Shown piece by piece: positions 23,481 to 37,925 of a DNA stretch of 64,000 nucleotides (within the stretch, counting starts at the first letter, position 1; every line of letters starts with the position of its first letter). The notes under the pieces are model-generated. The model did not search any database. It worked only from the letters and a program-made list of their open reading frames with translations, and was not told the origin of the DNA. The position numbers and the translations under genes are program-made. Source of the DNA: Candidatus Bathyarchaeia archaeon (lineage in GTDB: Archaea; Thermoproteota; Bathyarchaeia; Bathyarchaeales; Bathycorpusculaceae); the NCBI GenBank assembly GCA_049516875.1, contig JBEKSS010000006.1:1-64000 (forward strand). Reading direction: 5' to 3'.

Positions 23481-24011
23481 CTAGTACTCGATTCCTTTTC
23501 GAGCTTGGAGACCTTTGCTGAATGGGTGTTTAATTTCCTTCAACTCTGTGACAAGGTCTGCAAGCTCTATTATCTCTTCTGGCGCGTTGCGGCCAGTTAG
23601 AACGATCTCGACGTTTTCGGGTTTCTTCTTTATCATTTCCACAACGTCCTGCAGTTTTATCAGTTTCAGGTGTAAGGCAACGTTGATTTCGTCGAGGACA
23701 ACAACGTCATATTTTCTGCTTTCTATGATTTCTTCAGCTAGTTTGAGTGCTTTTTCCGCGAGTTTGACATCTTCTTTTTCGGGTGGTTTCGACGTTATGA
23801 ACTTGCCTCTTCCAAAGGCTTTCAACGTGAGGTTTGGAAGTCTGTCCACTACGTGGAGTTCGCCGTAGTCGAATCCGCCCTTGATGAACTGAACCACGTA
23901 AACCTTAAGCCCTCTTCCTATTGCTCTGAGCGCAAGACCCAAAGCCGCTGATGTTTTGCCTTTTCCGTTTCCGGTGTAGACTTGGACGAGTCCTTTTTCA
24001 AGCTTGGGCAT
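23481..24011 (-). CDS. cobO: Cob(I)yrinic acid a,c-diamide adenosyltransferase (CobO/BtuR)
   Basis: YTGNGKGKTSAA, VLDE, LTGR, KHPF...ARKGIEY. Confidence 0.95.
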   Translation of the reverse strand: MPKLEKGLVQVYTGNGKGKTSAALGLALRAIGRGLKVYVVQFIKGGFDYGELHVVDRLPNLTLKAFGRGKFITSKPPEKEDVKLAEKALKLAEEIIESRKYDVVVLDEINVALHLKLIKLQDVVEMIKKKPENVEIVLTGRNAPEEIIELADLVTELKEIKHPFSKGLQARKGIEY

Positions 24012-24963
24012 TCTTGATCGCCTTTTTGACGAGTTTTTCAGCTGCAGAGGTTGGATCTATCTTCTTCTCAAGGATTTCGTGGAGAAGTTCGTCAAATTTC
24101 CCCTCTCTTTTGAGTTCGTCAATCAGTGTTCTGGATATTCTTTCTTTTATGGCCTCTAGGAGCTCATCCTCAGCCTTGGTTTTTAACAGGTTTTCCCTGC
24201 ATACTATATCGCCTTCGAGGAAGCATCTGTGTTCTTCCAGTTTTTCGATGAGTTCTGGAACGCCTTCGCCCGTCAGGGCCACTGTTTTCAGGACGGGCGG
24301 CTTCCATCCGCCTTTCTTGTTGCTCAACTGAAGCATTGCTTGAATGTCCATTGTAGTCTTGTTTGCGTTTTCTCGGTCAGCCTTGTTTACCACGAATATG
24401 TCGGCTATTTCCATTATTCCGGCCTTTATCGCTTGTATCTCGTCTCCCATCCCTGGGGCGTGCATGACAACTATTGTTTGCGCCACTTTGACAATTTCCA
24501 CCTCAGATTGACCGGCACCAGTAGTTTCAACTATCACTACGTCCTTTCCGGCTGCGTCCAGTATCTTGGCAGCGTCTTTCGTCGCTTTCGATATTCCGCC
24601 TGCGTAGTTGCGGGTTGCCATGCTTCTAATGTAAACGCCCTCGTCTGTGCTCAGTTCCTGCATGCGGATCCTGTCGCCTAAGAATGCCCCCCCAGTGAAC
24701 GGACTTGTAGGGTCTACGGCAATGATGCCCACCGTTTTGCCCTTTCGTCTGTACTCGCGGACGATTTTCTCAATCAGAGTGCTTTTTCCAGCACCGCCAG
24801 CTCCGGTCAACCCTACAACGTGGGCCTTACCTGTATGTGGGAAGATTTGAGAAATCAGTTCTTGTGCTTCAGGCATGCCGTTCTCAATGATCGTTATCGC
24901 TTTCGCTATGCTTCTGCGGTCTCCTTTCAGAACTCCGTTGACGATTTCTTCAGTTTTCGTCAA
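23998..24963 (-). CDS. meaB: Acyl-CoA mutase-associated GTPase MeaB
   Basis: GAGKST, VDPTSPFTGGAFLGDRIRM, ETTGAGQSE, NKAD. Confidence 0.95.
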   Translation of the reverse strand: MTKTEEIVNGVLKGDRRSIAKAITIIENGMPEAQELISQIFPHTGKAHVVGLTGAGGAGKSTLIEKIVREYRRKGKTVGIIAVDPTSPFTGGAFLGDRIRMQELSTDEGVYIRSMATRNYAGGISKATKDAAKILDAAGKDVVIVETTGAGQSEVEIVKVAQTIVVMHAPGMGDEIQAIKAGIMEIADIFVVNKADRENANKTTMDIQAMLQLSNKKGGWKPPVLKTVALTGEGVPELIEKLEEHRCFLEGDIVCRENLLKTKAEDELLEAIKERISRTLIDELKREGKFDELLHEILEKKIDPTSAAEKLVKKAIKNAQA

Positions 24964-24985: not shown

Positions 24986-25393
24986 TTAGTCTCTTTTCGG
25001 GAGGTTGTCCATCACGTACTGTATTATCTCTTCCGTCGTAGTTCCTGGCCCAAAGATTTCTTTTATTCCCAGCTTTTTCATTTCAGACACATCTTCTTCG
25101 GGGATTATTCCTCCGGCAAAGACCATCACGTCCGTTAAGCCTTGCTTCTTCAAGACTTCCATTATTCTTGGGAAGAGAGTCCTGTGTGCCCCCGAAAGAA
25201 TGCTTAGACCTATGACGTCCACGTCTTCCTGTAGGGCGGTTTCAGCGATTTGTTCCGGGGTCTGTCTTAGACCTGTGTAAATCACTTCCATGCCGGCGTC
25301 TCTGAGGGCTCTTGCAACAACTTTGGCGCCTCTATCGTGGCTGTCAAGGCCCGGTTTGGCGATTAGAACTCTTATTTTTCTTGCGTCTTGCAT
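24986..25393 (-). CDS. Acyl-CoA mutase B12-binding small subunit
   Basis: [10 protein letters not shown] (DxHxxG), SILSGAH, GGIIP. Confidence 0.95.
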
Positions 25394-25405: not shown

Positions 25406-27088
25406 TCAAATTACAATTAGCTCTTTGTATTCTCCATAAACTTTCCGCAGCACGTTGCAGATTTCGCCAAGCGTCGCATAGGCTTTGACTGCTTCAATTA
25501 TTGCGGGCATGAGGTTTTCATCTTTTTCTGCTGAACGCTGAAGCTTGTCGAGTGTCTCCTCAACTCTCCTGCTGTCTCGCGTTTTTTTCAGGTTCTGAAG
25601 GTTGGCGAGTTGTTCTTTTTCAGCCTTTGGATCCACCCTCAAAAGCTCCATTGGATATTCTTCTTTCTCGATTTGGTAGTCGTTTACTCCAACTATTGTC
25701 CGTTTCCTGTCATCTACCTCTTTCTGGTGTTTGTAGGAGCTGTCAGCAATTTCCTTTTGGAAAAATCCGTTTTCTATGGCGACTATGGCCCCACCCATGT
25801 TATCTACCTTCTGAATGTACTCCATTGCTTTTTCTTCCATTTCGTTTGTTAAAGCTTCAACGTAGTATGAACCCGCTAATGGGTCGGTCGTGTTTGTTGC
25901 GCCGCTTTCATGGGCTATTATCTGCTGTGTTCTCAGTGCAACTCTGACGGCATCTTCGCTCGGAAGCGCTAAGGCTTCGTCGAACGAGTTTGTATGCAAT
26001 GATTGTGTTCCTCCTAGAACTGCTGCTAGGGCTTGGATTGTCGTGCGAGTGATGTTGTTTAACGGTTGCTGTGCTGTAAGTGTGCATCCAGAAGTTTGAA
26101 CGTGCATGCGCATCCACATCGACCTTGGGTTCTTGGCGTGAAAACGTTCTTTCATAAGCTTGGCCCAAAGTCTTCGGGCAGCTCTAAACTTGGCTAGTTC
26201 TTCGAAAAAGTCGTTGTGCGAGGCAAAGAAGAACGACAGTCGGTGGGCAAAGTCATCAACTTTCAGTCCCCTTTGCAGAGTGGATTCCACGTAGGTTATT
26301 CCATCATAAATGGTGAACGCGAGTTCTTGCACGGCGTTTGCCCCTGCCTCTCTGATGTGATACCCGCTTATGCTTATGGGATTCCACTTTGGCAAGTGTC
26401 GCGCGCAGTACTCTATGATGTCCGTGGTGAGTTTGACAGAGCTTTTCGGCGGGTATATGCACAGTTTCTGAGCGAAATATTCTTTCAGATTGTCGTTTTG
26501 CGTTGTTCCGCCGAGTTTTTCTCTTGCTACGCTTTGCTCGTGGCCTACCGCAACGTACATGGCCAGCAGCATGGCTGCAGGTCCATTTATGGTCATGGAC
26601 GTTGTGACTTTGTCAAGCGGAATTCCATCCAGCAAAACTTCCATGTCTTTGAGTGACGAAATCGCCACTCCACATATGCCGACCTCGCCTTTCCCCATCG
26701 GGTGGTCCGAGTCGTAGCCCATTATGGTTGGATAATCGAAGGCGACGCTCAAGCCTGTCTCGCCTTCTTTAAGAAGGTACTTGAAACGCTTGTTCGTCTG
26801 TTGCGCTGTGCCAAACCCTGAAAACTGCCGCATCGTCCAGAAGCGCCCACGGTACATCGTAGCGTGTACGCCGCGTAGGAAGGGGTACTCCCCAGGGAAG
26901 CCTAAGTCTCGCATGTAGTCTAGCTCTTTGACATCCTCAGGCGTGTACAACCGTTTAATCAGCATGTTAGAGGTGTTTCGGAATTCGTTTTTCCTTTCAC
27001 TGGATTGTCTAATCCAGTTTGGCAAAGTTGTCTGTTCCCAACGTTCACGTTCTTTCTTTAACTCATCGATTTTTCTCTTTTCAAACAT
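25406..27088 (-). CDS. Acyl-CoA mutase large subunit, isobutyryl-CoA mutase-type specificity residues
   Basis: PGEYPFLRG, WTMRQFSG, LKEYFAQK, ISISGYHIREAG, GTQSLHTN. Confidence 0.9.
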   Translation of the reverse strand: MFEKRKIDELKKERERWEQTTLPNWIRQSSERKNEFRNTSNMLIKRLYTPEDVKELDYMRDLGFPGEYPFLRGVHATMYRGRFWTMRQFSGFGTAQQTNKRFKYLLKEGETGLSVAFDYPTIMGYDSDHPMGKGEVGICGVAISSLKDMEVLLDGIPLDKVTTSMTINGPAAMLLAMYVAVGHEQSVAREKLGGTTQNDNLKEYFAQKLCIYPPKSSVKLTTDIIEYCARHLPKWNPISISGYHIREAGANAVQELAFTIYDGITYVESTLQRGLKVDDFAHRLSFFFASHNDFFEELAKFRAARRLWAKLMKERFHAKNPRSMWMRMHVQTSGCTLTAQQPLNNITRTTIQALAAVLGGTQSLHTNSFDEALALPSEDAVRVALRTQQIIAHESGATNTTDPLAGSYYVEALTNEMEEKAMEYIQKVDNMGGAIVAIENGFFQKEIADSSYKHQKEVDDRKRTIVGVNDYQIEKEEYPMELLRVDPKAEKEQLANLQNLKKTRDSRRVEETLDKLQRSAEKDENLMPAIIEAVKAYATLGEICNVLRKVYGEYKELIVI

Positions 27089-27236: not shown

Positions 27237-28355
27237 TCAATTGCGAAATTCCAGCAGACCAGCTGACGCGGAGAATCCCCATCCGTAACCAAGCATCAGT
27301 ATGGTGTCTCCTCTTGCGAATTCGCTCGTCGAAACTATTCTGTCAAGAATGAAGGGCAAGCTTGCTCCGGCTAGGTTGCCGTTGTTTCTGAGCACTTCAT
27401 GTGACTCTCTGAGTTTTTCCTTTTCAGCGCTATGGTGTTCAGCCAAAGCGTCCAGTATCTTTTCGCTGCCCGTGTGAACCGCCCACTTCTTCGCAGCTTT
27501 CATTCTATTCTTTGCTTCCTTTCCAAACAATCTGTCAAGCGCTAGACTCGTGTACTTGACTCCTAGGTCTGGAATTTCCTTGCCAAGATGTGAATGGAAG
27601 CCGAACTTGAACGGTTCGTCTAAAAAGGAGAGTCTGGCATAACCAGCCAAATAGTCCTTTGAATCGATATTCGTTACTTCAACAATTTCGTCAACCTTCA
27701 AACCCTCACTCTTATTCGACACGACGGCGGCGGCCACGCCGTCCCCGAACAGGAAAAACTGCATCGTGGCCACCCATTTCCTCAGCTCCATTTGCTTTCT
27801 TCTGTTGTCTTTTATCGAGCCAATCTTACCGATTTCCATCACGTCTTCCAGCCCTCGTACCTGGTTTTGGAACCAGTATGAACTTACTCCTGAGATGCAA
27901 ATCAGCACATTGTCTTTCGGGTGCATAGCAAGATAGTCTTCCGCGAGTTGCAATGCCTTCATAAAAGCTGTGCTCGCTATTCCTTGCGCGTTAACGTGTC
28001 TAACGCAAGGATCCAGGCCTAGCTGCGGTACTAACAGCTGGCTGAGGCCGGGGCTTAGGAAGGGGTTCGTGTCGTAGGCAGTGATTAGATAGTCTACGTC
28101 TCCAGAATAGAGATCGGCTCTTTGGATGGCTTTCTGGCAGGCCTCAGAGCACAGGTCAATGAGGTTGGTTTCGTCCATCAGGGTTTCTGGTTCTGTTGTG
28201 AGAGCTGATTGGCTGATGAGACAACGTTTTGAAACTCCCAGGTTAAGCACGTTTTGTACGACGGGTTCTGGAAGTTCGCACGGGAACTCTTCTAACAGTT
28301 TTTTGGTTGAGTATTCATTCGGGGGGAGGGCGGTTGACAATTGTATGATTTGCAT
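27237..28355 (-). CDS. Type III polyketide synthase (chalcone synthase/KAS III fold) with Ser at the catalytic Cys position
   Basis: TALPP, QGIASTA, FLFGDG, WAVHTGS, NGNLAGAS, GYGWG; start moved to ATG 28355. Confidence 0.8.
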   Translation of the reverse strand: MQIIQLSTALPPNEYSTKKLLEEFPCELPEPVVQNVLNLGVSKRCLISQSALTTEPETLMDETNLIDLCSEACQKAIQRADLYSGDVDYLITAYDTNPFLSPGLSQLLVPQLGLDPCVRHVNAQGIASTAFMKALQLAEDYLAMHPKDNVLICISGVSSYWFQNQVRGLEDVMEIGKIGSIKDNRRKQMELRKWVATMQFFLFGDGVAAAVVSNKSEGLKVDEIVEVTNIDSKDYLAGYARLSFLDEPFKFGFHSHLGKEIPDLGVKYTSLALDRLFGKEAKNRMKAAKKWAVHTGSEKILDALAEHHSAEKEKLRESHEVLRNNGNLAGASLPFILDRIVSTSEFARGDTILMLGYGWGFSASAGLLEFRN

Positions 28356-28893
28356 ATCAGATACGAAGCCTGAAGAAATTATAAAAGGATGACTGTCCTG
28401 CATGCGCCAAGTCGATTTCAAGTCGTTTTCTTGTGAACGCAACCTGTGACATCTTCCAAAAGAATCATGGTTCCTGGTCAAGAGTGTTATACTTGTTGTG
28501 GAACGGACAACAGAGCATGCGCTTTTTGTTGAATCATATTTGTATCATATAGTAGACCGGGGGGAGGGTCTCTGAGCACACACATACCGGAAATTGGAGA
28601 ACCTTGAATGGTGCGTGTGGGGTCTTAGGGTTTCGGAATCATAGACTGTTTGATATTGAGCGGAGGAAAAATCCTGTGGGCATTGCTCGCGTTTTGGCGA
28701 TTACAACTACGTAGAACCGCACGTTCTGAGGCTTGAAATAGCAGTTTGACTTGCAATCCTTGGCTGAATACGTGTGGCGCACATCTACAACAATGGCGTC
28801 GGCGGACACGCACAGAAAATACCCTTGCCCATCACAAATGTCTTATAGTCCTTGAAATCCACTAACTACATCTTCCCATATTGAGGTGGAGAA

Positions 28894-30186
28894 TTGAAAA
28901 AAGTCGGAATAGTCGCAGGCAGCATTTCACGATTTGATCTTCCTAGACATACGTTGCAAGAAGAAATGTGCGCAGAAGCAGTCAAAATGATACTTGACGA
29001 CGTTCCAGAACTGGAACTCGGCGACTTCTTGAGGAAAGGTTACGCGTGTTGCTACTCATATTTCAGTGACATTCTCGAACAGCAGCAGTGCATGCATTGG
29101 ATAATCAACGACTACCTGGGCTTAAGCGGCGTTCCCTCCTACAGAGTTGAGTCGGGAGGAGCAACTCCAATAGACGCAATAATAAACGCGGCGTTGTGGA
29201 TACGTTCAGGCATGTTCCCAGTGGTTCTCGTGGTCGGCTGGGAAAAAATGAATGAACTGCCAATCCAAAAAGTCAACGAGGCAATAGCAATAGCCGGAGA
29301 CACAGACTGGGACTTCGTTTCAGGCTTCACGTACAACGCTTTCTACGCAACCATGGAAGCAAGGCGGATGCACGTTTACGGAGACAAAGAGGAAGACCTC
29401 GCTGAAGTGTCGGCCATGTGCCACAACAACTCCCTTGACAACCCCTATGCCCAATGGCCAGCTCAGCATGGCTTCACAAAAATCACGGTGGACGATGTGT
29501 ACAAATCACGTTTGATATCTTGGCCATACCGAAACTATGAATGTGCAATGACAAGTGAAGGGGCATCTGCCGTGTTGTTGGCGAACGAGGAAATGACGAA
29601 GAAGCTGACTGACAATCCCACATGGATCACTGGCATAGGCTTCGGTAGCGACACTATGAGAGTCGGAGACCGCCCAGACAACCCCGCATGGAAAGGATTG
29701 TATCCAGAAGATGAAAAGATTTGGCCGAAGACCATTCCAAAACCGATGTCGCCCTATCCAGATCTGCTCAACTTTGGCTCTCTGAGAGTGTCTGCTAGAA
29801 TGGCCTACAAAGACGCTGGAATCAAGAACCCGCGGAAGGAAATCAGCTTCGTAGAAATCTTCGACCCGTATGCAGGAGTAGTACTAGCCGGGTTAGAGGA
29901 TTTTGATTTCTGCAAGAGAGGCGAAGGCAAGAAAATGGTTCGCGAAGGCATAATCAAGCCCCACGGAGAACTTCCCTGTCAGCTCAGCGGAGCGCTGACA
30001 GCACAAGGACATGCTGTAGGCTCAACGTCAATCGCGCAAGTCGTCGACAGCCACTGGCAGCTCAGCAACCAGATAGGAAAGAAATGGGGCGCACCGGGCA
30101 GACAGCTAAGCAAGCCGAAGAAGGCTTTCATTCACGGACACGGCGGCACAGGATGCCAAGCAGGCGTAGTAGTCTTGGAGGTGTAA
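28894..30186 (+). CDS. Thiolase-fold protein lacking the nucleophilic Cys (non-canonical, Ltp2-like)
   Basis: RVESGGAT in place of ExACAS; GWEKM, EIFDPY, GHAVG. Confidence 0.85.
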   Translation: MKKVGIVAGSISRFDLPRHTLQEEMCAEAVKMILDDVPELELGDFLRKGYACCYSYFSDILEQQQCMHWIINDYLGLSGVPSYRVESGGATPIDAIINAALWIRSGMFPVVLVVGWEKMNELPIQKVNEAIAIAGDTDWDFVSGFTYNAFYATMEARRMHVYGDKEEDLAEVSAMCHNNSLDNPYAQWPAQHGFTKITVDDVYKSRLISWPYRNYECAMTSEGASAVLLANEEMTKKLTDNPTWITGIGFGSDTMRVGDRPDNPAWKGLYPEDEKIWPKTIPKPMSPYPDLLNFGSLRVSARMAYKDAGIKNPRKEISFVEIFDPYAGVVLAGLEDFDFCKRGEGKKMVREGIIKPHGELPCQLSGALTAQGHAVGSTSIAQVVDSHWQLSNQIGKKWGAPGRQLSKPKKAFIHGHGGTGCQAGVVVLEV

Positions 30187-30191
30187 AAGGG

Positions 30192-30881
30192 GTGAAGCAA
30201 CCAGGACCAGAGAAATTGCTGAAGGAAAAGAAGATCGATGAAAAACACTGGAGAGAATGGGAACGCAAAGGCGGTTGGACACCTGAAGGCTGGAAAATAG
30301 TGGAGATGAACGACGGACCAACACTGAATGAATTGAAACCAGAAAAGTTTTTGATTGTTCACAGACCTCACGGCAGCTTGTTCCACCACAGCTACGGCAA
30401 AGTGTCACAGTTCTTCATAGGAATTTTGGAAGGAAAACTCTACGGGACAAAGTGTCCAAAATGTGGACTAGTATATTGCCCGCCAAGAGCACACTGCTTC
30501 AACCCGAAATGTAGGCTTGAAGAAACGGAATGGGTCGAGCTTCCGAAGAAAGGAGAGATCCACTCGTACACGGTTATGGCAATCGCTTGGCCTTCAATGG
30601 CACATCTGCAACCGTTAGTGGGCGCAATGGTAAGAATCGACGGCACAAACACCTGTTTACCTATGACAATGCGAGACGTAGACCCTGAAAAAGTGAACAT
30701 TGGTCTAAAAGTCAACATAAACATGTCCAAACAGCCCAAAGGAGACCTGTTAGACGTATACGCAACTCCAGCAGAAGAACCGGTAGCTCCGAAGAGAACA
30801 CCAGAAGAACTGAAGCGCTTCAGAGAAGACATGGAGAAAACGCGAGCCTGGGTCAAAAAAACCTTCGGCGAAAAGAAATAA
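30192..30881 (+). CDS. DUF35 (Zn-ribbon/OB-fold) protein with extensions
   Basis: GTKCPKCG...PPRAHC...C; GEIHSYTV; GTG 30192 follows the thiolase stop. Confidence 0.88.
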   Translation: MKQPGPEKLLKEKKIDEKHWREWERKGGWTPEGWKIVEMNDGPTLNELKPEKFLIVHRPHGSLFHHSYGKVSQFFIGILEGKLYGTKCPKCGLVYCPPRAHCFNPKCRLEETEWVELPKKGEIHSYTVMAIAWPSMAHLQPLVGAMVRIDGTNTCLPMTMRDVDPEKVNIGLKVNINMSKQPKGDLLDVYATPAEEPVAPKRTPEELKRFREDMEKTRAWVKKTFGEKK

Positions 30882-31041: not shown

Positions 31042-32214
31042 TTGAACGGCAAACCGTTGGTCTCGATAGTTTCTGTTGGTCTCTCAAAGTTTGGAAAACT
31101 TGAAGGACTTTACGCGAGAGAGATCTTTGCGGAAGCAGCCAAAGAAGCCTTTGACCGTTGTCCGAAATTGGATCCCAAGAATGATATTCAGGCCCTTTAC
31201 GTAGGTCATATGGGTGAATCCTATGAGCATCAAGGACACACTGGCGCCACAGTGGCAGACTGGATAGGGTTGGGGCATGTTCCTGCGACAAGGACGGAAG
31301 CAGCGTGTGCCTCTTCCGGTGTAGCCTTGAGAACTGCTATTTGTGCTGTGCGTTCGGGCCTCAGCGATGTTGTTATGGTGGGAGGCGTTGAGAAAATGAC
31401 TCATAGGCCCACGGCAGAAGTGACCGAGTATCTTGCTATGGCTTCGGATTATCCCTTTGAACAATGGAATGGCATGACTTTTCCAGGATTGTACGCCTTG
31501 ATGGCTACTGCACACATGCACGAGTACGGGACGACTGAACGACATCTTGCCATGATTGCTGTGAAGAATCATTTTCACGGAAGCCTGAATCCAAAGGCAC
31601 ATATGCAGAAAGAGATAACACTCGAAACCGCTCTGTCTTCACGCGTCGTAGCTTGGCCTCTTAACCTTTACGATTGCTCTCTCATCACCGACGGCGCCAG
31701 CTGCTTAATATTGACCAAGCCAGAACTAGCCAGAAAATTCACAGATATGCCAGTCAACATCGTTGGAAGCAGTCAGGCAGGTGACACTATAGGATTATAT
31801 GAAAGGAAGAGTCTAACGTCCCTTGCGGCTGCCAAGATGGCCGCCAAGAAAGCATATGAAATGGCCCAAGTCAACCCAGAGGAAATTGACGTAGCTGAAG
31901 TTCACGACTGCTTCACGATAGCCGAATTAATAGCCTACGAAGACCTCGCTTTTTGCAAGCCGGGCCAAGGCGGTAGTCTGATTGAGAGGGCAGAGACGAA
32001 ACTGGGCGGAAGAATACCTGTGAACACGAGTGGCGGGTTGAAAGCTAAGGGGCATCCTGTTGGGGCTACGGGCACAGGCCAGGCCTACGAGATCTATTTG
32101 CAGTTGACTGGGCAAGCGGGTAAGAGGCAAGTTAAAGATGCAGAAATCGGTTTGACGCATAACGTCGGCGGTTCAGGTGCAACTGCTACGGTTCACATCT
32201 ACAGGAGAGGATGA
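31042..32214 (+). CDS. Acetyl-CoA acetyltransferase (archaeal thiolase)
   Basis: TEAACASS, GVEKM, EVHDCF, KGHPVGATG, HNVGG. Confidence 0.93.
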   Translation: MNGKPLVSIVSVGLSKFGKLEGLYAREIFAEAAKEAFDRCPKLDPKNDIQALYVGHMGESYEHQGHTGATVADWIGLGHVPATRTEAACASSGVALRTAICAVRSGLSDVVMVGGVEKMTHRPTAEVTEYLAMASDYPFEQWNGMTFPGLYALMATAHMHEYGTTERHLAMIAVKNHFHGSLNPKAHMQKEITLETALSSRVVAWPLNLYDCSLITDGASCLILTKPELARKFTDMPVNIVGSSQAGDTIGLYERKSLTSLAAAKMAAKKAYEMAQVNPEEIDVAEVHDCFTIAELIAYEDLAFCKPGQGGSLIERAETKLGGRIPVNTSGGLKAKGHPVGATGTGQAYEIYLQLTGQAGKRQVKDAEIGLTHNVGGSGATATVHIYRRG

Positions 32215-32618
32215 GAACGACCGAACAAGCGCCATTCACGATAGAACAGTTCTACAAGCATATCAACCAAGGGAAGCTGTTAGGAGGCATGTGCACGAAG
32301 TGTGGGAAGGTGCATCTTCCGCCGAGGCCTCTGTGCGACAATTGCTATTCGCAAGACTTCGAATGGACCGAAATTCCTGCAAGAGGAAAGCTGTTAACTT
32401 ACACGGTCATCCACATTGCTCCGGTCCAATTTCAGTCAATGGCTCCATACGCAATGGGCATCGTCCAACTTACGGATGGCTTAAAGATGCCAGGGATGAT
32501 CAGAGGGATAGCGCTGGAACAGATTAAGATAGGAATGGAACTGACGATGGACTTTGGAACATGCGCGGCTACTCAGCCTTGGCCGCAATGGCCTAGATAC
32601 TACTTCAAGCCAGCCTAA
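32211..32618 (+). CDS. DUF35 (Zn-ribbon/OB-fold) protein
   Basis: CTKCG...PPRPLCDNC; GKLLTYTV. Confidence 0.9.
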   Translation: MRTTEQAPFTIEQFYKHINQGKLLGGMCTKCGKVHLPPRPLCDNCYSQDFEWTEIPARGKLLTYTVIHIAPVQFQSMAPYAMGIVQLTDGLKMPGMIRGIALEQIKIGMELTMDFGTCAATQPWPQWPRYYFKPA

Positions 32619-35876: not shown

Positions 35877-36293
35877 TTAGATTATTGGTTTCGGCTCTTC
35901 GAGTTTTCTTAGAAAGGGACGTAGAGCTGAGTGGTGAACGCTCTCTTCTGGCAAATCGTTCTTGGATATTCCGGGTGTGCCTATTTTTCTGCATATGAAG
36001 TTGAGCGAGTCTTCTGTGAAGTTTAACAGGTTTTGGCCTTCAGTCGTCAGTTTGTATACTTTTCTAGGTCTTTCAGTGCTCATGTTCCATTCGCTTTTGA
36101 CAAATCCCTTTTTCTCCAGCGTTCCCAGAAGAGGATAGATGGTGCTTGGTCCGAAGTACACTCCGAAGGCTTTTCGGATTCTTGTGATTATTTGGTAGCC
36201 GTGCATGGGCTGTCCGTTTAGGAATTGGAGTATTATCAGGTCCAGCAGGCCTTTCATCAGTTTGGCCTGAACTTCTTTTGTGTTGTTTATCAT
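35877..36293 (-). CDS. PadR family transcriptional regulator
   Basis: MHGYQII...STIYPLL..LE.KG...RKVYKLT; start moved to ATG 36293. Confidence 0.9.
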   Translation of the reverse strand: MINNTKEVQAKLMKGLLDLIILQFLNGQPMHGYQIITRIRKAFGVYFGPSTIYPLLGTLEKKGFVKSEWNMSTERPRKVYKLTTEGQNLLNFTEDSLNFICRKIGTPGISKNDLPEESVHHSALRPFLRKLEEPKPII

Positions 36294-36494
36294 GGTGCCT
36301 TTCCTTCTTTTGTGTTGTTTTGTCCAACAGTATTGTTGTTGGACGTGGATACGACATGTCCTCTGTATGACATATCTTGAGTCTTTATAGAGACTAAACA
36401 ACGATATAAAGCTTCATGCTTACGTAAGACATAAGAAAGCATAAAGAAGCATACTGAAAAGTCCACTTCGAACATAACTCTAATAAGCCGAAGC

Positions 36495-36863
36495 ATGAAC
36501 CAGTACAGAATGAGACACAAGAAGAACGTGAAAGAATTGGCAGAAGCTTACAAAGAAGGAATTGTACAACGCATCACCAGAAACCTGCTCGACATCCAAA
36601 TGCTAAGACTCATCCAAACGCAGCCGATGTGGGGCTACATGATAAAGAAACAAGCAGAAACAAGATTCGGCGTAAAACTGAGGCATGGGGCACTGTACCC
36701 GTTGCTAAATGCCTTGGAGCGTGAAAGCTTCCTGACAAGCCAAAACCAAAGACAGGGCGGAAGAACAAGAAAAGTGTACACGCTGACCAGGAAGGGACAA
36801 CAATACATAGAAGCGTACAACAGCGTCCTGAAAGAACAACTAGAACGTCGAGACATGAAGTAG
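36495..36863 (+). CDS. PadR family transcriptional regulator
   Basis: MWGY...GALYPLLNALE...RKVYTLTRKG. Confidence 0.9.
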   Translation: MNQYRMRHKKNVKELAEAYKEGIVQRITRNLLDIQMLRLIQTQPMWGYMIKKQAETRFGVKLRHGALYPLLNALERESFLTSQNQRQGGRTRKVYTLTRKGQQYIEAYNSVLKEQLERRDMK

Positions 36864-36926
36864 ATGTTATGCTTTTGAAGCCGTTGCTGTCAGGTCTTAA
36901 ATAGAACTAGTAGCTAACATAAAATC

Positions 36927-37925
36927 ATGGGACCAAAAAAAGGCAGAAAGCTATCCGTAGTTGTTATGGAAGAGCTTCAGGAAAGAAGCAACAGGGGGCT
37001 TGAATTCGCAAAGAAAACCATGCTGGCAGAAAGGATTGAATACGAAAAACTGCGGAAGGCATTAGAGCATTATGTTAAGAACTGGAATGATTTCACTCAT
37101 CCAGGACTGTTTTCATTAGCTTGTGAGGCAGTTGGAGGGCGTCCGGACAACGCAGTGCAGGTTCAAGCAGCTATCGCCCTGTTGGCTGCAGCCTTTGACA
37201 TACATGACGACATCATCGACGGATCAGAACAGAAACATGCCGTACCCACGGTTTTTGGAAAATATGGAAAAGACATAGCGCTTCTATTGGGAAACGCGTT
37301 CCTGATAAAGGGATTTGCACTATTCTGCGTGTCAACAGAAGCCTTAGCTCAGAAAGACGCTCGGAAAGTCATTGAAGCGTTACAAGCATCTCTGTTCGAA
37401 CTTGGCAATGCTCATGCTATGGAGTTGAACCTGAAAGGAAGAATTGACGCCGAACCGGCAGAATACATGCGAGTTGTGGAAATGAAAGCCTCAGGCATCG
37501 AGGCTGACATGTGGATTGGAGCCAAAGTCGGAGGAGGGGCAGACAAAGAAGTTGAAGCATTGACAAAATATGGGAGAAACTTGGGGACTCTGGCCACGTT
37601 GAGAGAAGAGTTCGTCGATGTTTTCGAGGTTGAAGAGTTGAATCAACGGATTCGTGGCGGATATTTGCCCATTCCGATTCTATACGCTATGCAAAATGAA
37701 GAAACGAAGGAAAGGCTGAACAAGCTGATTGCAAAAGGAAAAGCGACAAGGAGTGATACTGATGATATCGTCGGAACAGTTTTCGACGACAAAGAAGTAA
37801 TAAAGCTCAGAAAAGTTATGGCCGACCTTGTGAATGAAAGCGTTCATCTAACCTCAAGCATACGCAACAGAAAGTTAAGGACGCAACTCGCCAACCTAGC
37901 TTCCTCTACGATAGAAGACTTGTAG
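36927..37925 (+). CDS. Polyprenyl synthetase-like protein with degenerate motifs
   Basis: FARM HDDIID present; RRG loop replaced by QKHA; SARM replaced by LREEFVD. Confidence 0.8.
   Translation: MGPKKGRKLSVVVMEELQERSNRGLEFAKKTMLAERIEYEKLRKALEHYVKNWNDFTHPGLFSLACEAVGGRPDNAVQVQAAIALLAAAFDIHDDIIDGSEQKHAVPTVFGKYGKDIALLLGNAFLIKGFALFCVSTEALAQKDARKVIEALQASLFELGNAHAMELNLKGRIDAEPAEYMRVVEMKASGIEADMWIGAKVGGGADKEVEALTKYGRNLGTLATLREEFVDVFEVEELNQRIRGGYLPIPILYAMQNEETKERLNKLIAKGKATRSDTDDIVGTVFDDKEVIKLRKVMADLVNESVHLTSSIRNRKLRTQLANLASSTIEDL

Follow-up and report, generated by a model that had tools for sequence, protein, structure and literature searches.

The 64,000-nucleotide stretch analysed here (the window; Candidatus Bathyarchaeia archaeon, uncultured and from peat, assembly GCA_049516875.1, contig JBEKSS010000006.1, positions 1 to 64,000 of the forward strand) carries on its minus strand, at 27237..28355, a gene for a 372-amino-acid protein, P0001. 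This protein belongs to the β-ketoacyl-acyl carrier protein (ACP) synthase III (KAS III)/type III polyketide synthase (PKS) branch of the thiolase superfamily, and has serine at the position of the catalytic cysteine. The serine is a real variant under strong purifying selection and not the mark of a broken gene; it goes back to a single Cys-to-Ser event (TGC to AGC) in an ancestor within one Bathyarchaeial family and has been retained since. With regard to function, which is inferred, the reading favoured here at a probability of roughly 40% is that P0001 would be a functional Ser-His-Asn, CoA-dependent condensing enzyme, which works via an acyl-O-serine and takes part in short-chain acyl-CoA metabolism.

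Translation of the frame yielded 372 codons without internal stops, with the motifs GIASTA at residues 125-130, LFGDG at 202-206, WAVHTG at 291-296, GNLAGAS at 326-332 and GYGWG at 356-360. Ser128, at the catalytic-Cys position, is encoded by AGC at 27972..27974 (minus strand), the surrounding DNA at 27963-27986 reading CAA GGA ATA GCG AGC ACA GCT TTT (Q G I A S T A F) on the same strand. The equivalents of the catalytic His and Asn are His294 (codon 27474..27476, minus strand) and Asn327 (27375..27377, minus strand); in the HMMER alignment to the THNS chain 1u0m, Ser128, His294 and Asn327 are paired with its Cys, His and Asn. The ATG at 28355 is the likely start of P0001, because most homologues are 368-372 amino acids long and the ATG is preceded, at a distance of about 27 nt, by a TTTTATAA box. 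This archaeal TATA-box-like element (28379..28386, minus strand) is a putative promoter of the gene. No Rfam family was found in the window at gathering thresholds.

Profile searches of P0001 in Pfam gave matches above the cut-off for ACP_syn_III_C (41.2 bits, cut-off 26.6) and Chal_sti_synt_C (41.1 bits, cut-off 27), while on the N-terminal side Chal_sti_synt_N gave no match and FAE1_CUT1_RppA scored 18.4 against a cut-off of 27. None of the curated NCBIfam models was reached, the best being DpgA with 100 bits against a cut-off of 425; the FabH family models PRK09352 (74.3 bits against 249) and TIGR00747 (65.2 against 292) were not reached either. Among PDB sequences, the type III PKSs THNS (1u0m), CylI (8ysp) and PKS18 were the top HMMER matches, with E values of 6e-13 to 1e-8. 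The AlphaFold2 (AF2) model, computed from a 128-sequence alignment, is of high confidence, with a predicted local distance difference test (pLDDT) score of 95.1 and a predicted template modelling (pTM) score of 0.94. Foldseek searches with this model placed CylI, PKS11, THNS and PKS18 on top (E 5e-27 to 1e-22, TM about 0.75-0.82, identity about 18-24%), and a FabH stands at rank 49. An earlier note on this DNA had proposed this fold, with intact His, Asn and Phe motifs and Ser at the nucleophile; translation, Pfam, the 1u0m alignment and the AF2/Foldseek comparison bear all of it out. P0001 is the sole Chal_sti_synt_C gene of its genome, in which there is no Cys-type paralogue.

To follow the conservation of the serine, P0001 and 127 full-length representatives from a library of 1.84 billion proteins were aligned with MAFFT. 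The nucleophile column holds Cys in 125 of the 128 rows and Ser in three, namely P0001, P0134 (324 aa, a fragment from the same clade) and the distant P0186. An equivalent of His294 is present in 128/128 and one of Asn327 in 127/128 of these rows, which lies well beyond chance. His294, Asn327, Phe203 and Pro102 are invariant across the 128 sequences of alignment A1, distant relatives included. P0186, a KAS III-like protein of 351 aa, has kept His and Asn together with its Ser, and may represent an independent Cys-to-Ser case. Closer to P0001, the query and the best 120 of its 742 database matches, which are 65-98% identical, all carry Ser (121/121). After addition of locus-derived proteins and removal of duplicates, Ser occupies position 128 in 162/162 distinct sequences of the Ser clade, and none of the alternatives Ala, Gly, Thr, Asn, Cys and Gln was found among these 162.

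Related loci numbered 63 in species-representative genomes, of which 60 are titled Bathyarchaeota or Bathyarchaeia; the remaining three bear the titles of Acidoferrum, Acidiferrales and Woesearchaeota metagenome-assembled genomes, which we infer to be binning noise. The 63 loci split into 46 of the Ser-type and 17 of the Cys-type. A codon tally over 67 of 73 loci (six with split or short matches were left out) gave AGC 49 times and AGT once in 50 Ser-type loci, and TGT 9 times and TGC 8 times for the Cys codon, so that the Ser codons lie one nucleotide step from those of the Cys-type relatives. A quickly built IQ-TREE phylogeny (LG+G4, SH-aLRT support only) of 74 rows, comprising 44 Ser, 16 Cys and 14 distant representatives and rooted on three of the latter, recovered the Ser group as a single clade (SH-aLRT 98) with a short stem of 0.046, nested among Cys-bearing Bathyarchaeial sequences. 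The 17 Bathyarchaeial Cys relatives read QGMAC at the motif, are 48-64% identical to P0001 and lie outside the Ser clade. Of 401 genomes sampled from the class, 15 contained the Ser-motif DNA pattern; these all belong to the window's own family, and a control pattern had no hit.

Values of dN/dS, estimated pairwise by the Nei-Gojobori method, lay between 0.09 and 0.19 for 10 Ser-clade pairs and between 0.11 and 0.24 for 4 Cys-type pairs. Four further metagenome runs, which stem from four studies and cover peat, sediment and soil, supplied contigs that span the codon and displayed no difference at 27972-27974 among the rows listed; the differences nearest to the Ser128 codon in these rows are at 27956 and 28074, and there were 24 weaker rows besides. 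A search for RNA evidence gave no RNA run among the 24 runs listed. For Ser128, this excludes an error of sequencing as well as a mutation of one strain and a gene in decay: Ser is found in 162/162 sequences, its codon in 50 loci, dN/dS is low and the contigs of the other runs have no listed difference there. An error of sequencing or assembly, or a dead allele of this strain, has in its favour that the Ser codon is a single nucleotide away from Cys; it is left with a negligible probability by the recurrence of the same codon in 50 Ser-type loci of separately assembled genomes, by the lack of a listed difference there in the four further runs and by the strong purifying selection. The recently inactivated allele or sequencing error that the earlier note had kept as an option is thus refuted, and of the condition that it set for a refutation, Cys in all close orthologues, the opposite was found.

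The columns that separate the Ser group (n = 162) from the Cys group (n = 17) are only 10, 101, 126, 128, 158 and 163. Position 10 is L in the Ser group and V in the Cys group; position 101 is S in 134, C in 23 and T in 5 sequences of the former and C in 17/17 of the latter; position 126 is I, T, V or A as against M, position 128 S as against C, position 158 S or T as against N, and position 163 Q as against Y, I, H or N. The Ser101 codon of P0001 (28053..28055, minus strand), directly 5' of the codon for the invariant Pro102, thus marks, by group alignment, a second pocket position altered from Cys. Positions 101-102 are taken by us to correspond to the Met137-Pro138 element of chalcone synthase (CHS), which reaches across the dimer into the partner cavity, and position 158, from the 1u0m alignment and CHS/THNS numbering, presumably to the cavity residue Thr194 of CHS or Cys168 of THNS. 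No Cys was gained at any other column of the Ser clade in the 162 sequences.

The first-branching subclade of the Ser group in the tree consists of L016, L017 and L022, and Cys101 is still present in L016 and L017, as well as in L009. The swap at 128 came first, together with the changes at 126 and 158, and position 101 was altered later in most lineages, because the early-branching L016 and L017 keep Cys101. Judged from aligned residues, the pattern is that of a remodelled, working active site. A separate proposal, that the swap is an adaptation to oxygen by loss of oxidisable thiols, found no support, as Cys26, Cys69, Cys73 and Cys153 are conserved in both the Ser and the Cys groups.

Downstream of the PKS-like gene, after a spacer of 148 bp, lies an operon for a B12-dependent acyl-CoA mutase, also on the minus strand. 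It comprises the mutase large subunit (25406..27088, Pfam MM_CoA_mutase) with Phe89, Ala116 and Gln207, the small B12-binding subunit (24986..25393, Pfam B12-binding and TIGR00640), a MeaB-type G-protein chaperone (23998..24963, Pfam MeaB, 309.8 bits) and an ATP:corrinoid adenosyltransferase (23481..24011, Pfam CobA_CobO_BtuR, 231 bits). Where at least 5 kb of downstream flank was available, a co-directional mutase of this same F/Q type follows the PKS-like gene in 29 of 35 loci of the Ser-type, at distances of 109-5193 bp, as compared to 3 of 9 Cys-type loci. The best PDB match of the adjacent mutase is the 2-hydroxyisobutyryl-CoA mutase HcmA (4r3u, 603 bits), ahead of human methylmalonyl-CoA mutase (MCM; 509) and Propionibacterium MCM (480). 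In alignments to these PDB structures, its Phe stands against Tyr in MCM and Ile in HcmA, its Gln against Arg in MCM and a like Gln in HcmA, and its Ala116 against Asp in HcmA, MCM also having Ala. All 41 signature-bearing mutase matches of at least 77.5% identity show this F/A/Q combination, and each lies beside a PKS-like gene (38 Ser-type and 3 Cys-type loci).

In MCM, Tyr89 and Arg207 bind the substrate carboxylate; Phe80 and Gln198 mark isobutyryl-CoA mutase, and Ile90 and Asp117 mark HcmA. The adjacent mutase would probably isomerise a short acyl-CoA without a charged acyl group, e.g. butyryl- or isobutyryl-CoA, and it may be an archaeal isobutyryl-CoA-type mutase or one of new specificity. 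The second mutase large subunit of the genome, which is 61% identical and of the Y/A/R type, is encoded on contig C10 (genome G000, locus L074, 3809-11676). Its neighbours there are genes for a 12S carboxyltransferase, a 5S PYC_OADA subunit, a biotin carrier, a biotin ligase and a methylmalonyl-CoA epimerase, and the locus looks like a transcarboxylase-type methylmalonyl-CoA pathway. No Biotin_carb_C domain was found in this 97.5%-complete genome, while the control genomes were positive in 13 of 14 cases, and the single carboxyltransferase of the genome is the one with transcarboxylase-type subunits on C10. A gene resembling HMG-CoA (3-hydroxy-3-methylglutaryl-CoA) synthase and its thiolase lie elsewhere, on contig C11. 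The gene context as a whole argues against secondary metabolism and points to short-chain acyl-CoA metabolism.

On the other side of the PKS-like gene, and divergent from it, a plus-strand operon begins with Thl1 (28894..30186), a thiolase-fold protein assigned by Pfam Thiolase_C_1 and by alignments to 7yvy and 6esq, in which Gly replaces the nucleophilic Cys. Thl1 reads ESGGAT where the thiolases 7yvy and 6esq have EAACAS, and the stretch ESGGATPI is kept in 47/47 Thl1 matches of at least 55% identity. It also matches PDB 6ok1 (E 3e-16) and resembles the aldolases Ltp2 and Sal, thiolase-like proteins without the Cys that are partnered by DUF35 domains. Next follows DUF35L (30192..30881), a long DUF35 protein with Zn ribbon and OB fold (Pfam zf-ChsH2 and OB_ChsH2_C), whose 229 aa include a Trp-rich N-terminal and a charged C-terminal extension; its mean column identity is 89% over 37 sequences from 37 genomes. 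The likely start of DUF35L is GTG at 30192, after GGAGGTG; the listed open reading frame start at 30084 overlaps Thl1. Further downstream are Thl2 (31042..32214; Pfam Thiolase_N and Thiolase_C_1), a thiolase with the nucleophilic Cys in EAACASSG, and the short DUF35 protein DUF35S (32211..32618; zf-ChsH2 and OB_ChsH2_C). Thl2 exceeds the cut-off of NCBIfam PRK06064 with 508.9 bits, and its Cys is kept in 35/35 matches of at least 55% identity.

Thl1 is 89-96% identical across genera, far more conserved than its neighbours. The gene arrangement is conserved. Among loci with at least 1.5 kb of upstream flank, a divergent Thl1 orthologue lies within 1.5 kb of the PKS-like gene in 38 of 42 Ser-type and in 0 of 16 Cys-type loci. 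Of 41 relatives sampled, 12 have a Thl1 of at least 89% identity, and it is in these same 12 genomes that the Ser-type gene or motif was found; since the genomes are kin and not independent, this co-occurrence is to be read as a pattern and not as a statistic. Thiolase and DUF35 genes accompany both Ser-type and Cys-type loci. The intergenic region between the divergent PKS-like gene and Thl1 (28356-28893) measures 538 bp, which is long for this genome. In another family, contig C9 of genome G032 carries a 34-residue match to the PKS-like C-terminus (C9:30350-30451), which may be a decayed copy, beside a 59%-identical Thl1-like gene (C9:31679-32950). Farther along the window, at 35877-37925, two divergent genes for PadR-family regulators are followed by a polyprenyl synthetase gene.

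The Cys-type orthologues and paralogues (e.g. P0122, L048, L051 and L061) agree with P0001 in length and in the His, Asn and Phe residues. They differ from the Ser-type in having Cys101 and Asn158 and in the absence of a divergent Thl1 orthologue. At least four Cys-type loci lie beside genes for acyl-CoA dehydrogenase and/or the alpha and beta subunits of electron transfer flavoprotein (ETF), a Bcd/Etf-like set (L052 1332-3938, L055 7143-9317, L068 713-2879 and L045 5721-6998), and the Ser-type locus L024 has one acyl-CoA dehydrogenase gene nearby. Directly upstream of the Cys-type PKS-like gene, L048 (992-3282) and L051 (2570-4853) hold two more thiolase-like genes without the nucleophilic Cys, which read FVGGGTG and a gapped SGDG stretch. 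Cys-less thiolase-fold proteins are therefore a recurring feature of the module. Three genomes were seen to hold both a Ser-type and a Cys-type copy, namely G010 (contigs C44 and C52), the record with L022 and L052, and the record with L039 and L066; in L066, two frames share the Cys-type copy between them.

A comparison with known systems places P0001 nearest to the bacterial and plant type III PKSs, namely CylI (8ysp/8yt0), PKS11 (4jat) and PKS18 (1ted) of M. tuberculosis, THNS (1u0m) of S. coelicolor and chalcone synthase, with which it has in common the fold, the His, the Asn, the Phe of LFGDG and the C-terminal glycine loop, and for which, as for P0001, no ACP is implied. It departs from them in having Ser128-His294-Asn327 instead of a Cys-His-Asn triad, and in being surrounded by acyl-CoA mutase, thiolase and DUF35 genes rather than by tailoring enzymes. 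The KSQ decarboxylases have Gln at the nucleophile position, a residue never found in the Ser clade (0/162), and P0001 is not of their kind. The archaeal assemblies of thiolase, HMG-CoA synthase and DUF35 protein, the archaeal fatty-acid-synthase complex and the bacterial acylase PhlACB resemble the gene set around P0001 in that a thiolase and a DUF35 protein are joined by one more thiolase-fold enzyme acting on CoA esters. The third enzyme of the P0001 gene set is, however, type III PKS-like and not HMG-CoA-synthase-like as in the archaeal assemblies.

The DpsC-like priming ketosynthases share with P0001 the thiolase fold, the KAS III-like character and a natural Ser nucleophile. In PMC12664062, DpsC is described with a Ser-His-Asp triad (S118-H297-D302), and as an enzyme that self-acylates and primes with short acyl-CoAs, among them, in vitro, those of the butyryl and isobutyryl groups. 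An ACP is the partner of DpsC in antibiotic clusters of actinomycetes, whereas no ACP or ketosynthase/chain-length factor (KS/CLF) genes were found among the neighbours of P0001 that were scanned. DpsC was absent from the best 60 of the 152 PDB sequence matches of P0001, and because of this the Ser of P0001 probably arose independently of that of DpsC. The comparison with DpsC drawn in the earlier note stands as an analogy only, in that the Ser nucleophile is shared but P0001 keeps Asn where the DpsC triad has Asp.

In the condensing mechanism favoured here, Ser128, activated by His294, would take a short acyl group of C2-C4 (e.g. acetyl, butyryl or isobutyryl) from its acyl-CoA to form an acyl-O-serine ester. 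His294, Asn327 and Phe203 would then decarboxylate a malonyl-type CoA thioester, of which methylmalonyl-CoA is the more plausible in this organism, and the resulting enolate would attack the Ser ester to give a 3-oxoacyl-CoA. P0001 would thus be an ACP-independent 3-oxoacyl-CoA synthase, chemically DpsC-like, on a type III PKS scaffold with the Asn retained, and would act with the adjoining thiolase/DUF35 proteins and the Phe/Gln B12 mutase rather than in natural-product synthesis. A condensing reaction is suggested because DpsC shows that condensing enzymes of this superfamily can employ Ser as nucleophile. The record of substitutions argues that the Ser128 hydroxyl itself would be needed, because Ala, Gly, Thr, Asn and Cys, each one nucleotide step from AGC, never take the place of Ser. 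Retention of the overall reaction across the Cys-to-Ser swap, rather than a new one, is also suggested, as the Cys- and Ser-types share a pathway context of F/Q mutase, thiolase and DUF35 protein.

Several points weigh against this interpretation. Compared with a thioester, an oxygen ester is the weaker electrophile; the Ser of DpsC has Asp as its partner, whereas P0001 keeps Asn; and a pure decarboxylase would account for the conserved His, Asn and Phe just as well. The supply of malonyl-CoA by a classical carboxylase is doubtful, because Biotin_carb_C is lacking and the lone carboxyltransferase sits with transcarboxylase-type subunits, and the extender unit is hence uncertain. The substrate and product of P0001 are guesses, and the pocket assignments depend on sequence alignment and CHS/THNS numbering. 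Moreover, the 148-bp spacer, together with genes inserted in other loci (gaps of 109-5193 bp), weakens the case for co-transcription with the mutase.

An enzyme that only decarboxylates, in which His294, Asn327 and Phe203 would turn malonyl-, methylmalonyl- or ethylmalonyl-CoA into the acyl-CoA in a KSQ-like manner, appears rather unlikely. It agrees with the invariance of the decarboxylation residues where the acyl-carrying Cys is gone, and the Tyr/Arg mutase, epimerase and carboxyltransferase of contig C10 should make methylmalonyl-CoA available. CHS Cys164 mutants and ketosynthases with a Cys-to-Gln change still decarboxylate, yet substitution by Ser is not known to raise decarboxylase activity as Gln does. 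A strict Ser in 162/162 sequences, with no Ala, Gly, Asn or Gln, is unexpected if the side chain were idle, and the operon context shared by Cys- and Ser-types argues against a change of reaction. The adjoining mutase, with Phe/Gln, is probably not handling methylmalonyl-CoA, since it is the Arg that binds the substrate carboxylate, and for that step a biotin-dependent carboxyltransferase set is already present in the genome. The idea that P0001 decarboxylates methylmalonyl-CoA in the service of the adjacent mutase was considered in particular and demoted, in view of the Phe/Gln residues of that mutase and the presence of a Tyr/Arg mutase, transcarboxylase genes and an epimerase on C10.

If the acyl-O-enzyme formed by Ser128 and His294 were passed to water, CoA or another acceptor and no C-C bond were made, P0001 would be an acyltransferase, comparable to those of KAS III-like type, or an acyl-CoA hydrolase, which is unlikely. 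A Ser-His pair is classic acyl-transfer chemistry, both cavity thiols were lost (128, then 101 in most lineages), and the setting is one of acyl-CoA metabolism. These features sit poorly with the invariance of Phe203 and Asn327, which serve decarboxylation and the stabilisation of the enolate, and no acceptor-related gene is evident among the neighbours scanned; for a hydrolase, we would add that waste of the thioester energy is unexpected in a fermentative anaerobe. Direct transfer of acyl groups by DpsC-like enzymes is described in PMC12664062 and favours the acyl-transfer alternative. It is improbable that P0001 is a non-catalytic subunit, a structural partner of the thiolase/DUF35 proteins comparable to the inactive partners of some ketosynthase heterodimers. 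Such partners usually lose catalytic residues; the Ser clade, however, shows no variation in Ser, His, Asn, Phe or the glycine loop, its dN/dS falls inside the Cys-type range, and the genome has no Cys-type paralogue with which P0001 could pair. A structural role draws on the strict co-occurrence with the highly conserved, Cys-less Thl1 in the sampled relatives (12/41, at least 89% identity), and on the scaffolding of thiolase-fold enzymes by DUF35 proteins in archaea, as stated in 10.1101/2024.07.05.601840.

A broader proposal builds on the condensing reading, and is itself doubtful. According to it, a subgroup of one Bathyarchaeial family would run an undescribed short-chain acyl-CoA module, in which the Ser-type PKS-like protein, the Gly-for-Cys Thl1 with DUF35L and the Phe/Gln mutase would build or rearrange C4-C5 skeletons, and P0001 would be the first natural condensing enzyme of the type III PKS fold to use an acyl-O-Ser. 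The module would link, e.g., acetyl-, butyryl- and isobutyryl-CoA, and two of its three thiolase-fold enzymes would be without the canonical Cys. No description of the P0001 family or of a natural Ser type III PKS was found in the open-access literature, and the subscription literature may differ; the Ser variant of P0001 may be undescribed, and the greater novelty may lie in the module around it rather than in the one residue.

The catalytic Cys is treated as defining for type III PKS and KAS III enzymes, a rule from which a selected Ser-His-Asn clade departs. The Ser clade and its close Cys orthologues in the same operon form a ready pair for the effects of a thiol-to-hydroxyl exchange on Claisen chemistry, and for the question of which few second-shell changes (126, 158 and 101) make the swap workable. 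Genes of this kind would mislead genome-mining tools by which they are labelled 'chalcone synthase' or counted towards polyketide clusters. Bathyarchaeia are abundant in peat and sediments, and the uncharacterised module of P0001, Cys-less thiolase, DUF35 protein and non-MCM acyl-CoA mutase probably bears on how they process short and branched acyl-CoAs.

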